From Chthoniobacteraceae bacterium (GTDB lineage Bacteria; Verrucomicrobiota; Verrucomicrobiia; Chthoniobacterales; Chthoniobacteraceae), in NCBI GenBank assembly GCA_031409335.1, contig JANNWY010000182.1, forward strand, positions 1-48,130: a stretch of DNA of 48,130 bases. Direction: 5' to 3'. Shown here one piece after another: positions 30,001 through 39,000 of this stretch (its first letter is position 1; every line of letters begins with the position of its first letter). The position numbers are program-made.

Positions 30001-33000
30001 TCGCCCGCGTTACATCAACTGATACGCGTCCACATCCACGGTGACGATGACGTCCTCGGGAAACGGCAGCTTGTCCAGCACACCGCGCAAATGCCGGCTC
30101 AGTTTCAAAATGGCCTTCGTCCGCAGCATGAGTTGGAAGCGGAAATTGCCGTGCGATTTTTCCAGTGGGGCGGGCGCGGGTTCGCTGAGGGTGGTGCCGG
30201 GGGGGGGGAGGGATTCGGCGAGGCGGCGGTGCAGGGTTTCGGTGGAGAAGCTGGCGCGGGCTTCGTGCGGGGAGCGGATGTGGATGATGATGAGATGCGT
30301 GAAGGGCGGGTAGTCCCACTGTTTGCGGAACTCGATTTCCTGCTCCCAGAAGCCCTCGAAATCGTGATGTCGCGCGAACTGAATCGCAGGACTGAACGGC
30401 GTGAAACTTTGCACGAAGACCTCGCTCGCGAATTTGGCTGAGATCGACATGCCACTCGTCTTCCGCGTTTACGGCGACGGAGCGTGGGCGAAATCACCGT
30501 TCTCTGTCTCGCCTGACCGTACCGCGTTTTGATAGGAGGAAACGTGTCGCCAACCGCGCCTGCCACCGTGCAGCGCGGGGCGACGGTCCTCTGTGAGCAC
30601 GACACCGAAACCGAAAAAGCCCGGAACTGCCCGCAAGAAAGCGCCGCCCCGTGCGGACGCCGACAGGGTTCCCGAGAAAGGCTTGTTTTCCAGAGGGCGA
30701 AATGGCGGAAGCCGAAGTGCGCGCTTGCGTTTGGCAAGACAACGCGGTGCCATTCGCGCCATGCCCGAGCCTGCGGAGACCTTTCGCTTCGATGTCGCCT
30801 TCTCCTTCGCTGGCCCGCATCGCGAGAAGGTGCGGACTATCGCCGAACTGGTCGCTGCGAAGCTTGGTCGTGAGCGGGTGTTCTATGACGAGTGGTACGA
30901 ACACGAAATCCTCGGCGACGAAACGGGCGCGCTGCTGCAACGCTTCTATCACGAGCGAAGTCTCATGGTCGTCGCGGACCTCTCGGACGAATACGCTGGG
31001 CGTCCATGGTGCCGGGCTGAAGCAAGCGCGATCCGGGCGCTTCGTTTTGATTTGGATCCCGCGCGCGATGAGACCGGCCGCCTTCGTCTGCTCAATGTGA
31101 AATTGGGTGATGGAAGCGTGCCGGGAGTTTTCACGACCACGGCCTATCTCGAGGGCATCGCCAAGACCGCCGAGCAATGCGCCGAACTCATCCTCAAGCG
31201 CCACGCCCTGCTTGTGCAGCGCATGAGCGCGCCAGCGCTTCTCGCAAGCGAATCTCAAGCACCTGCGCCTCATGCAGCGCGCGGAATGGACATTGGGAAG
31301 GCTCCCGCCAACACGACATTGCCCCTCGAATGGCTTCGCCGCACCGGCGTTTATGTTGCCCACTTTACCGCCTATTTCATCGGGGGCGCTGCGCTCGGGG
31401 AGGTGGTTAAAAAAATCTTTCTATCTGGCGGCGGCGACACTATGCCCGGCCCCGCCATCTGGTTTGCTGCCGCCGCGCTCGCCCTTTCGCTCTTCTTCCT
31501 CCTCGCCTTCAACATCATCCCCCCCATCCTTCATGCACGCGAGAAGCGGCTCAAGCCCGTTCCCGACGACCGCATCGACCGGGAATACTTCACCACTAAG
31601 CCGCGCGAACATGACCCGCACGGCTTCTTCGCCCACGGCTACGATGCCTTCCTGGAGTGGGCCGCGGTCCCGGTGGCTTCCATCCTGCACCTCACCGGGC
31701 TCTCCGGTTCCGGCAAATCGTCCCTCCTCAGCGCCTTCCTCGCCCCGCGACTCGCGGAGGCGAAGCCGCGCACGCATCTCGTCATCCTGCGCTCCTATAC
31801 CGACCCGCTCGTGGCCATGAAAGAGGCGCTCGTGCAGTTCTGGAAGAAGAAGCCCGACGACTACGACTCGCTGCCTCCGCTCGAAGCGCTCCGCCGTGCC
31901 GCCGCCAGGCTCCCCGCCGGGGAAAGACTGCTCGTTGCGTTCGACCAGTTTGAGGAGTTCTTCATCCTGCGCGCCACCGCCACCGAGGGCACCGCAGGCG
32001 GCGCGCCGCTCATCGTCCCCATTGCGGACCTGGCACCACTGCGCGAGTTTTTCAACGACTTCCGCGCAGAACCTCCGCATAACGCGACTCTGCTTCTTTC
32101 GTACCGAGAGGACCACCGCGGTCTCATGGAGCCGCTAGGGCTGCCGACGCGGCGCGAAGGCGAAGACTGGCGCTCCGTCGAGCCGCTGGGTTTCGCCGAG
32201 GCGGCAGACTTCCTCGGCAAATGTCCCGGTCTCCCCATTCCGGAGGAGCGGATGAGCAGTGTCCTACGTGAGGCCGCCCGGCAAGAAGGGGGCCACGTCG
32301 TCATGCGACCCATCGTGGCCAACATCCTCGGCATCGTCCTCGCCCGCATGGCCGGCCATCCCACGCTCTGGCGCCGGTCGGGCGACCTACTGCGCAGCTA
32401 CGTGCGCGACTGCCTCGCGGGTCCATTGGAAAAGGAGCGCGCCGCCGCCTTGCGCGAGCTGCTCACCGATTTCCACACCGCCCGGCCTCGCGCCGTTGAA
32501 GAGATCGCCGGCAAGACCGGCCTCGCCCCCTCGACGCTTAACGATCAGTTCGGCCATCTCGAGCTCGCCGGCCTCGTCCGCTGCCTGAATGACGAGGAAG
32601 GCACCCCCGCCCGCCGCGTCTGGCAGATAGCGCACGACTTCATCGCCACCCTCACCGAGCGCGTCCTCGATGCCATGCACCGCACCCTCTGGCACGCCGT
32701 CAAGCCGTGGCTCGGTCCGGCCTCTTTTGCGCTTTGGTTGCTCGTCGGTCTCGGCGCTTGGCCTTGGGTGGAAAAGCATCGTGCCATCGCCGAACTTGCC
32801 AATGTGGGGCTGAGTTGGAACGAAAAGGAGCATGAAGTCTCTGTCAGCGATTGGGGACAGGAGCATCTTCGATCTCTTGATGGAACTCAGCGAGCGCTTC
32901 GGCACCTTCGCCCCAGGACGCTCACTCTCATTGGCTGCCGCGCCTTGCACGATGTACATGGCCTCAGCGGACTAACTTCCTTAGAACGGCTCGACTTTAG

Positions 33001-36000: not shown

Positions 36001-39000
36001 AAGCGGCGCGCGCTCTGCCGGGGGAGCCGCGCGAGATGGTGGAATACCTCATCGGCCTCATGCGCCGCTTCGAGCTCTGCTTTGCCGTCGATGCCGACGA
36101 ACAGCGCTGGCTGGTGCCGCAATTGCTCAGCCGTTTCCAGCCCGCGCTCGAAGCCGGGTGGCAGACGGCCGAGGCAACGCGGCTGCGATACCGCTACGAT
36201 GTGCTGACCGAGGGGCTGCTGGCGCGCTTCATCGTGCGCACGCATCCGCTGAGCGAAGGGCAGCCGCGCTGGCGTTACGGCGTGGTGCTCGAAATGGAAG
36301 GCGCCCGCGCGCTCGTCCGCGCCGACCGCACACGCAACGAAGTGACCGTCGCCGCGATCGGCGACCCCGAGGCGCGGTTGCGGCTGGTGAAGGTGGTGCG
36401 CGAGCATTTTGCGCACATCAACGCGGAGTTGCCGGGGCTCAACGCGCGGGAACAGCTCGAACCGGAGGGACATCCCGGCGCTTTCAAGGCCGTGAAGGTG
36501 CTCGAAGCGGACGAACGCAAAGGCGGTGAATCGACGATCGAGACCGACGACGGCACGATCGCGATCGACAAGACGCGCGAACTCAACCGCATCTCCGCCC
36601 CGGCGGCGCGCGATCCGGCGCAGCCGCGGGTGAGGCTGTTCGTGAGCTATTCGCACAAGAACGCCCGGTTGTTGGATGTCTTCCGCACCAACCTCGACCT
36701 GCTAAAGGCGGACGGCCTCGCAGACTCGTGGACCGACCGGCTGATTCCGGTGTCTGCCGAGTGGGACGATGAGATTCGCCGCGAGATCGAGGAGGCCGAC
36801 ATCATCGTGCTACTGGTGAGCACGGCTTTCCTCGCTTCCGGCTACATTCGCAGTGTCGAACTATTGCGCGCCATCCAACGCCGCGTCGCCCGCGAGGCGG
36901 AGATCGCCATCGTGCTTCTCGAACCCAATGTGCAGTGGAAAGGCGAGCGCACCATCCACGACAAGGCCACCGGCAAGGATGTGAAGTTCAAACTGGATGC
37001 CTGGCAGGCGACGCTGCCCGATGGCCGCTGCGTGCGCGATTTTTCCACCCAGCAGATCGGCTTCAACGCCGTCGAAGCCGCGCTGCGCAAGCTGATCGCG
37101 AGCGTGCTGGCAAAGCGGCGGTCCGCGTAGCCGCTCACATGAGCTGATAGGCATCCACGTCCACCGTCACCACGACATCCTCGGGGAATGGCAGCTTGTC
37201 GAGCACGGCACGGAGGTGGCGGCTGAGTTTCAGGATCGCACGGGTGCGGAGCATGAGTTGGAAGCGGAAGTTGCCGTGGGATTTTTCCAGTGGGGCGGGC
37301 GCGGGTTCGCTGAGGGTGGTGCCGGGCGGGAGGGATTCGGCGAGGCGGCGGTGCAGGGTTTCGGTGGAAAAACTGGCGCGGGCCTCGTGCGGGGAGCGGA
37401 TGTGGATGATGATGAGATGGGTGAAGGGCGGGTAGTCCCACTGTTTGCGGAACTCGATTTCCTGTTCCCAAAATCCCTCGAAATCGTGATGCCGCGCGAA
37501 CTGGATGGCGGGGCTGAACGGCGTGAAACTTTGCACGAAGACCTCGCCTTCCACGTCGCCGCGGCCGGCGCGTCCGGCGACTTGGGTGAGGAGCTGGAAG
37601 GTGCGCTCGCCGGCGCGGAAATCGGGGAGGTGCAGGGCGAGGTCGGCGTTGATGATTCCGACGAGGGTGACGTTGGGAAAGTGCAGGCCTTTCGCGATCA
37701 TTTGCGTGCCGACGAGGATGTCGATCTTGCCGGTGCGAAAGGCGCCGAGCGTTTCGCGATAGGAATCGCGCCGCGTCATCGCGTCGGCGTCCATGCGTTT
37801 CACGACGGCTTTGGGAAAGAGTTTGCTGACGGCGTCCTCGACTTTTTCGGTGCCCGTGCCGCTGTAGCGGATCGCGGGATCTTTGCACTCGGGACACTTC
37901 GATGGCGCGACGGCTGCGTAGCCGCAGATGTGGCAGACGATGCGCGCGGCGGTGCGGTGGAAGGTGAGCGAGACGGAGCAGTTCGGACACGTGCAGACAT
38001 GGCCGCAGGTCGGGCAGATGAGCGAGGTCGAAAAGCCGCGGCGGTTCAGGAATAGGATCGTCTGCTCCTTCTTTTCGAGCCGGACGTTGATCGCCGTGAT
38101 GAGTTTCTCCGAAAGGATCGCGGACCTTTTCACCGACTCCATCCGCAGGTCGATGATGCGGATGAGCGGCATCTTTTTGTCGTCCACGCGCAGCTTCATG
38201 TTCAGCAGTTCGTATTTGCCGAGCGTCGCGTTGTGGTAGCTCTCCATCGACGGCGTCGCGCTGCCGAGCAGGCACGCGCATTTCTCCATGCTCGCGCGCA
38301 GCACCGCGATGTCGCGCGCGTGGTAGCGCGGCGTTTCCTCCTGCTTGTAGGAATTCTCGTGCTCTTCATCGACAACGATGAGCCCGAGATTTCCGCACGG
38401 CGCAAAGATCGCCGACCGCGCGCCGATGACGATACGCGCTCGGCCATCGCGAATCTTATGCCACTCATCGTGCCGCTCGCCTTCGCTGAGATGCGAGTGC
38501 AGCACGGCGACTTCGTGTTGCGTGGCCGCGAAGCGCGATTTGAAACGCTCGACGGTCTGCGGCGTGAGCGAAATTTCCGGCACGAGCATGATCGCCGACT
38601 GCCCGCGCGCGACGACGAGCTGGATCGCTTGCAGGTAAATCTCCGTCTTCCCGCTGCCGGTCACGCCGTGGAGGAGCATCGGGCGCGGAGTCGCATGGGT
38701 CCCATCGCTCCCATGAGTCCGATGGGACGAAGGGGACTGATGGGACCAATGCCCGATCGCCGCGCGCACACGCTCGAACACGGCGATTTGCTCTTCGTTC
38801 AAAGCCAGCGGAGCTGCCGCGACGAATGTCTCCCGCTCGAACGGATCGCGCTCCACTTTTTCATCCTCGGAAATGAGCAGCCCCTTTTTCACCAGCGCAT
38901 TGATGACTTGATGATTCGCATCGCACTGCTGCGCGAGTTCGGCAACGGCGACCGCCTTTCCCGCCGCGGCGAGAAACTCGACCACGCCCGCTTGCAGCGG

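Follow-up and report, generated by a model that had tools for sequence, protein, structure and literature searches.

A Roco-TIR gene in a priA-end insert of a Chthoniobacteraceae bacterium: a further example of a predicted conflict-protein architecture

Effector-bearing Roc-COR proteins and their kin

STAND-based bacterial NLR and Avs receptors with TIR domains follow a sensor-NTPase-effector logic. That logic is common to the protein considered here, an LRR-Roc-COR-TIR (Roco-TIR) protein encoded in a stretch of 48,130 nucleotides of a Chthoniobacteraceae bacterium (the window, on contig C182), though its NTPase is a Ras-like GTPase and its domain order is reversed; an nSTAND1 gene close by belongs to the STAND group itself. 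Is Roco-TIR a new class of bacterial immune receptor, as the survey's finding had it? It is not, as the proposal, TIR included, is already in print: the parts of Kaur, Iyer, Burroughs and Aravind 2021 drawn on here (PMC8195603, Fig. 6D and supplement), which write ‘AP-GTPase’ where others say ‘Roc’, predict proteins with LRRs, AP-GTPase and COR to be counter-invader systems, name TIR among their effectors, and list 723 ‘COR+TIR’ strings, a split pair of Roco and GT4 effector, and TIR+nSTAND1 rows. What those parts offer is prediction, with no experiment. The present protein has the Roc and COR domains of that family, its variable N-terminal LRRs (minimal here) and an exchangeable effector, TIR being one of those used; it adds another example to a known predicted architecture and no new design, differing in its very short LRR and in its position in a priA-end insert.

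The companion suggestion, that Roco proteins have a function in bacteria, is new only in part, a Runella Roc-COR-CHAT protease that activates a bacterial gasdermin having come first (bioRxiv 10.1101/2021.06.07.447441). According to the sections of that preprint used here, the protease cleaves its target in vitro and is toxic on co-expression in E. coli, no activating ligand is named, the GTPase is not dealt with, and no phage restriction in E. coli was seen with any of 12 gasdermin-protease systems. It resembles Roco-TIR in that a death effector sits C-terminal of a Roc-COR core, and differs in that the effector is caspase-like and acts on a partner gasdermin. The main text of a 2025 TIR survey is, as had been stated, without the terms GTPase, Roc or LRR, and COR is absent too; all four terms are likewise missing from the main text of PMC13069673. 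The literature searched, to which subscription papers and bioRxiv supplements did not belong, yielded no experimental test of Roco-TIR. For the LRR-Roc-COR part, the likeness in fold and sequence is to the Roco proteins of Chlorobaculum tepidum and Methanosarcina barkeri (PDB 6HLU, 3DPU, 8R4B, 4WNR).

The Roco-TIR gene and the insert that holds it

The fused gene stands as first described, with all five domains above Pfam cut-offs and its GTPase motifs intact:

34788-37130, + strand: LRR-Roc-COR-TIR gene, 780 aa (Pfam, AlphaFold model, fold search)
34905-35075, + strand: short LRR region, Pfam LRR_8, aa 40-96, with 3 canonical repeats plus caps
35214-35555, + strand: Roc GTPase domain, aa 143-256, Pfam 5.7e-26, with P-loop, switch threonine, DxxG and NK intact
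35715-36455, + strand: COR-A (aa 310-447) and COR-B (aa 463-556) domains, Pfam
36639-36932, + strand: TIR_2 domain, Pfam, aa 618-715, with conserved Glu691 (codon 36858-36860)

The COR-A and COR-B matches are at 1.5e-33 and 4.7e-19, the AlphaFold model has a mean pLDDT of 89 with C. tepidum Roco and LRRK2 as its top fold matches, and by Pfam and model alike the TIR lies directly C-terminal of COR-B. An alternative in-frame TTG start at 34734 would give 18 aa extra.

The TIR domain is probably NAD-cleaving, judging from its sequence. Its profile matches the TIRs of Cat1 (4.7e-10), AbTIR and RPP1, and those of TLRs too; Glu691, which we take to be the catalytic residue, aligns in the profile with the glutamate of the Cat1 and AbTIR motifs. 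A structure search likens the TIR part of the model to TIR folds; by sequence, no solved structure matches the TIR taken by itself. With PADLOC only the TIR parts match, as had been noted (ThsB-like, 1.1e-20 and 1.3e-42), and the nSTAND1 and middle genes of the insert match no model. Thoeris, taken as a stand-alone TIR sensor adjoining a ThsA effector, is rejected: the ThsB match is limited to the TIR, and the neighbouring genes have no PADLOC match.

The 6.7-kb insert between two priA ends is also as described, and its parts, besides the Roco-TIR gene, are as follows:

30010-30425, - strand: orphan copy of the priA 3′ end, the left repeat
30761-34111, + strand: gene of 1116 aa with a TIR-like domain, hydrophobic segments, nSTAND1, winged helix and 14 LRRs of 23 aa
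34141-34637, + strand: frameshifted remnant, DUF4469-like as a lead only, with the break near 34464
37135-39531, - strand: intact priA, whose 37137-37547 is the right repeat

The repeats are 414 bp at 88.4% identity (30012-30425 against 37137-37547) and not, as earlier given, 421 bp; the nSTAND1-LRR neighbour is present as claimed, its own TIR-like N-terminal domain having been overlooked. A frameshift has left the middle ORF a remnant, one base more being present at its break in contigs from two other runs. This ORF has no Pfam match, and the DUF4469 similarity has an atlas score of 0.92 and low recognition value. The priA stop is 4 bp from that of the Roco gene. Contigs of a second sequencing run, from the same study as the run best matching this DNA and so a test of assembly and not of spread, recovered 30396-34634, 34907-36427 and 36414-37309 without differences, at depths of 6.4-7.2 over the insert pieces versus 5.4-8.3 on the flanks; none of the 15 joints displayed, of 53 in those data, skips the insert. 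The runs listed as matching this DNA include no RNA run.

How did the insert come to lie there? Differences between the priA tails are mostly synonymous. As to which tail is the native one, over the last 120 columns the orphan tail is 82-90% identical to congener G003 and the other tail 75-80%; informative sites divide 19 versus 10, which is not significant (p 0.14), and congener G004 leans the opposite way, 11 versus 16. Elements such as e14 and phage 21, at icd, replace the 3′ end of a gene. The arrangement here is like theirs in having an intact gene, an orphan tail and cargo in between, and unlike theirs in that C182 has no tyrosine integrase match and no empty site was found: at 29 relatives' loci there is no pabA in the 0.5-1.5 kb following priA, and the congeners' pabA loci run on into other sequence. 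An integrase-driven island is not supported: none of the genome's 18 PF00589 matches is on C182 and no recombinase family is represented among the insert ORFs. Nor was priA seen to be a recurrent insertion hotspot, the present genome alone among 61 having two full-length priA ends. Similar gene-end duplications elsewhere in this genome flank unrelated, mostly non-defence cargo, and the position of the Roco-TIR island thus says little.

Conservation, effectors and spread among relatives

In an alignment of 119 relatives the P-loop Gly/Lys is kept in 118, the switch Thr in 117 and WDF in all; Glu691 is kept in 118, with one gap, and the TIR glutamate is invariant in 41 of 41 TIR tails. The region before the P-loop spans 147-690 aa (median 337 aa), the present copy being the shortest of the 119. 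C-terminal effectors are exchanged among Roco relatives: 41 of 79 genome loci carry a fused TIR of the present type, and among 34 other tails scanned were four with another TIR_2, three with a PNP phosphorylase, two with EAD1/EAD7 and one MCU-like. Within the present subfamily there is no sign of frequent TIR exchange, since Roc-COR and TIR pairwise identities correlate (rho 0.71 over 7021 non-independent pairs).

The spread is patchy. Of 151 genomes of the family, 34 have COR-A above cut-off, one with up to 13 matches, and in none of four congeners, these being 71-90% complete. Roco loci, found by alignment-based scans (single-protein scans gave none), include only 4 on viral contigs, and 9 of 72,556 plasmids have them. 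Rough calls on the 132 ORFs flanking the 41 fused loci, a count with no matched control, gave 7 defence-type families, 5 transposases or resolvases and 32 without a family, the rest being mostly housekeeping or metabolic; around these loci there is neither a defence-island signal nor a recurrent receiver gene.

Which way might the switch turn?

The idea of a sensor-switch-effector conflict protein is probably right in outline, and the gene is probably defensive; we consider it rather likely to encode a stand-alone, horizontally moved member of the LRR, AP-GTPase (Roc), COR and effector family. The Roc-COR core would be a nucleotide-dependent switch between monomer and dimer that keeps the C-terminal TIR, an NADase, inactive; on a sign of invasion the switch would move, TIR domains would cluster, and the clustered TIRs would cleave NAD+, with arrest or death of the cell. 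The nSTAND1 gene would be a separate predicted receptor within the same insert, no partner of Roco-TIR. The observed basis for this comprises the domain architecture with its intact motifs, the swapping of effectors, the patchy spread and the insert position; that from the literature, as far as the parts drawn on go, comprises the nucleotide-dependent oligomer state of bacterial Roco and the Roc-COR protease that triggers cell death. That the TIR is an NADase and that phage is the target, together with what triggers the protein and what its LRR does, is inference. Weighing against this reading are the absent defence-island signal, the few loci on viral contigs and plasmids, the lack of phage restriction by the gasdermin-protease systems in E. 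coli, and the minimal LRR. At 780 aa, and with a simple NAD+ read-out, the present gene is useful as a compact candidate; testing it would connect the Roco nucleotide cycle, which is well studied, with an immune output.

Effectors of the TIR, caspase and PNP kinds are taken to require clustering. C. tepidum Roco is reported to be a dimer when empty or GDP-bound and a monomer with GTP, and that fits poorly with GTP activating an enzyme that needs clustering; together with an LRR that is the shortest of 119, it leaves ‘LRR senses, GTP switches on’ not established. Could the switch be inverted? At rest the protein would then be monomeric and bind GTP; if GTP fell, or if some factor trapped the GDP or empty state, COR dimerisation would join the TIRs, and the short LRR would be structural, no ligand sensor. 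This we hold to be unlikely, though it accords with the weak binding and fast release of GDP by prokaryotic Rocos, with the TIR immediately after COR-B, and with the in vitro activity and E. coli toxicity of a Runella protease for which the preprint sections used name no ligand. Against it, the relatives' long and widely variable pre-P-loop region is as expected of a ligand-binding array, the clustering need of the effectors is assumed from general background, and a dimer is perhaps too small for TIR catalysis. A doubtful extension is that bacterial Roco-effector proteins in general guard the GTP pool, the GTP-bound monomer being the inactive form and the COR dimer, empty or with GDP, the active one: infection would drain GTP, or a phage protein trap the dimer, and TIR, caspase or PNP effectors would cluster. 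If true, the LRRK2-type monomer-dimer cycle would gain an ancestral purpose, and the present copy, with almost no LRR, would serve as a compact test of the idea.

A conflict role also has to be weighed against stress or developmental signalling in aggregating bacteria, the TIR making a nucleotide signal or being a scaffold, with no anti-invader role. The housekeeping neighbourhoods and the profile's matches to TLR TIRs and to PADLOC's ThsB-like signalling TIR are in keeping with this; however, swaps with PNP, EAD and caspase-type effectors and the patchy spread suit conflict genes better and no receiver gene recurs nearby, making it decidedly improbable. Least probable of all is a single two-component system made up of the nSTAND1-LRR and Roco-TIR genes. 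The two do share strand and insert, and a second study's run has pieces of both (92-99% identity); yet none of 112 further Roco loci, 2-23 kb in length, has a match to the nSTAND1 body, to its TIR, to the middle gene or to priA, and a separate remnant lies between the two.

There are three Roco copies in the genome, all with TIR, and the other two are present as the survey noted. The apparently split copy, on C302, is 39.9% identical to the fused one over 564 aa with its TIR in a different frame, either a true split or a frameshift; a search of 250 further genomes from the order gave it no close relative at E 1e-150. The COR-TIR copy cut by the end of contig C117 has an additional frame change near base 170-185.

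The Roco-TIR gene and its family

The gene lies on contig C182 of a 7.9-Mb assembly in 326 contigs, and since contigs from a second run of the same study match most of its insert with 0 differences and span the Roco-priA junction, neither insert nor junction is an assembly artefact. It is real and intact:

34788-37130, forward strand: LRR-Roc-COR-A-COR-B-TIR_2 open reading frame, 780 aa, every domain over its Pfam cut-off

The predicted structure (pLDDT 89) matches C. tepidum Roco and LRRK2, and the C-terminal tail modelled alone is predicted to adopt a TIR fold. By eye, TIR_2 is present in 118 of the 119 best non-self protein matches, which is not a frequency as the ranking favours full-length similarity. 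The P-loop, switch threonine, WDF and NK motifs are conserved among the 119, Glu691 is kept in 118 of them and in 41/41 TIR tails, and a profile built from these tails picks up Cat1, AbTIR and plant TIRs as well as those of TLRs; judged by its residues the TIR enzyme looks intact and presumably active.

Is it then a new class of immune receptor, as the survey's finding had it? That impression arose because Roco reviews, in the portions available, name no bacterial TIR fusion. It is not borne out: Kaur et al. 2021 (PMC8195603) sets out a conflict system of prokaryotes built around AP-GTPase (there meaning Roc) proteins of the same build, in which LRRs and the AP-GTPase are combined with COR and the C-terminal domain is of at least 24 kinds, TIR named among them. 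In the source file for its Figure 6 the string 'COR+TIR' occurs 723 times, which in the rows viewed is about two per protein. That AP-GTPase can replace STAND is stated in passages of Kaur 2020 (PMC7159879) and of a 2026 preprint. The Roco-TIR here is a further member of a family earlier proposed as bacterial immune receptors and is probably defensive; the literature search found no experimental test of Roco-TIR.

Among 8000 candidates scored, 2811 proteins matched at E 1e-20, many via LRR or Roc-COR alone, and a genome scan gave at least 589 confirmed Roco stretches. The best 79 of these loci are from Acidobacteria, Cyanobacteria, Verrucomicrobia, Planctomycetes, Bacteroidetes and Proteobacteria; the same TIR is fused in 41, other tails in 31, one is in pieces, and six with tails under 60 aa were left out of the tail scan. 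The 34 tails scanned (32 from the 31 other-tail loci, two viral) comprise another TIR_2 (four), PNP phosphorylase (three), EAD (two) and MCU-like (one), the remainder matching no effector family. COR-A exceeds its cut-off in 34/151 family genomes and in 0/4 congeners, whose genomes are incomplete. Tail variety and spread are what one expects of a conflict gene with interchangeable effectors and a scattered distribution. Surroundings speak against a classic defence-island gene: the 132 roughly called ORFs flanking fused loci are mostly housekeeping, with, in counts made without a control, seven defence-type by our own classing (AAA_21 twice, TIR_2, TPR-S, HNH_2, Uma2, DUF3368), five mobile and 32 unnamed. 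At two loci (L071, L073) Roco-TIR has a prkA-like gene on one side and a DUF444 gene on the other, within an apparent conserved operon. The MCU (calcium uniporter)-like C-terminal domain on a Roco protein is at L112:7783-8364 (E 1e-18).

How the switch might work

TIR NADases require clustering. The likeliest mechanism is that the Roc-COR switch would hold the TIR NADase in check until invasion; the survey's version of it is weakened by the short LRR region and by the behaviour of C. tepidum Roco. The region ahead of the P-loop, at 147 aa, is the shortest of 119 (median 337), and its approximately three LRR repeats offer little surface for binding. C. tepidum Roco is described as a dimer when empty or GDP-bound and a monomer with GTP; because GTP thus separates what a TIR NADase needs clustered, an inverted switch, with the TIR active in the GDP-bound or empty dimer, is by analogy a serious alternative, though less likely than restraint by Roc-COR until invasion.

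Gene-end duplication at priA and elsewhere

The two priA-end repeats bracketing the insert are the scar of a gene-end replacement. They mismatch at 19/305 of the first columns and 30/114 of the last, with only three protein substitutions and one extra proline. No integrase was found on C182, and no empty priA site at relatives' and congeners' loci.

Genome-wide there are 59 pairs of closely spaced direct repeats, of which 20 regions were examined. Other duplicated gene ends are those of lepA, glgE, an ABC-F gene, a sigma-54 regulator and a vWA gene, with cargo including an autotransporter-like gene, unknown genes, a HEPN-nucleotidyltransferase pair, an ECF sigma factor and PAS kinases; the position is not special to defence.

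3'-end duplications in this genome
C325 (L161), C278 (L158), C136 (L156), C99 (L155), C323 (L160)
Further: C318, C176, C33, C11

As at priA, the duplicated ends lie 2-9 kb apart with cargo between, and most of their differences affect a single codon position (lepA 13/13, ABC-F 18/21). No integrase family was seen in scanned cargo; C33 has a transposase. These cases point to homology-driven gene gain as a general route in the lineage. The glgE-end cargo (L158:1989-4707) is two genes of 447 and 351 aa without a Pfam family.

Neighbouring genes and the other copies

30761-34111: nSTAND1-LRR gene
34132-34658: DUF4469-like remnant

The first encodes an N-terminal TIR-like domain (Pfam 1.4e-4, under cut-off; atlas 0.96). 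None of the 29 relatives of the nSTAND1 body has it, while 21 proteins built in other ways carry it, with identities reaching 81%; one of these is a Roco (38%). Beyond the NTPase region, 28/29 relatives have a hydrophobic stretch, which precedes the LRR where there is one; here, on a hydropathy scale, the corresponding segment is under threshold. In this gene the TIR-like module is a new addition to a membrane-associated nSTAND1-LRR body, and the topology is possibly Toll-like, with the LRR facing outward. Its 14 regular 23-aa repeats have GC 0.52 vs 0.65 in the rest of the gene, and among the differences listed against a related strain 15/23 changed codons are synonymous. The tables of Kaur 2021 (PMC8195603), as far as available, hold TIR+nSTAND1 and nSTAND1+TM and no nSTAND1-LRR strings. 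Pairing of such a neighbour with Roco was seen in none of 112 other Roco loci. The remnant may be a separate module, because the contig of a related strain, which aligns here from 34132 on, has other sequence upstream.

The two further Roco copies claimed by the survey, on C302 and C117, are present. On C302 the Roco stop and TIR ATG overlap by 11 bases, exactly at the linker that varies among fused relatives, an arrangement that fits a coupled two-gene form and also a single-base indel. Elsewhere in the window are a perfect 28-bp inverted repeat ahead of pabA (29326-29405), with a related arm past it (29986-30009), and, near 26.4 kb (26311-26495), a palindromic repeat of high copy number. At C176:27776-29030 two short TIR_2 matches lie side by side, and one of them contains an internal stop.
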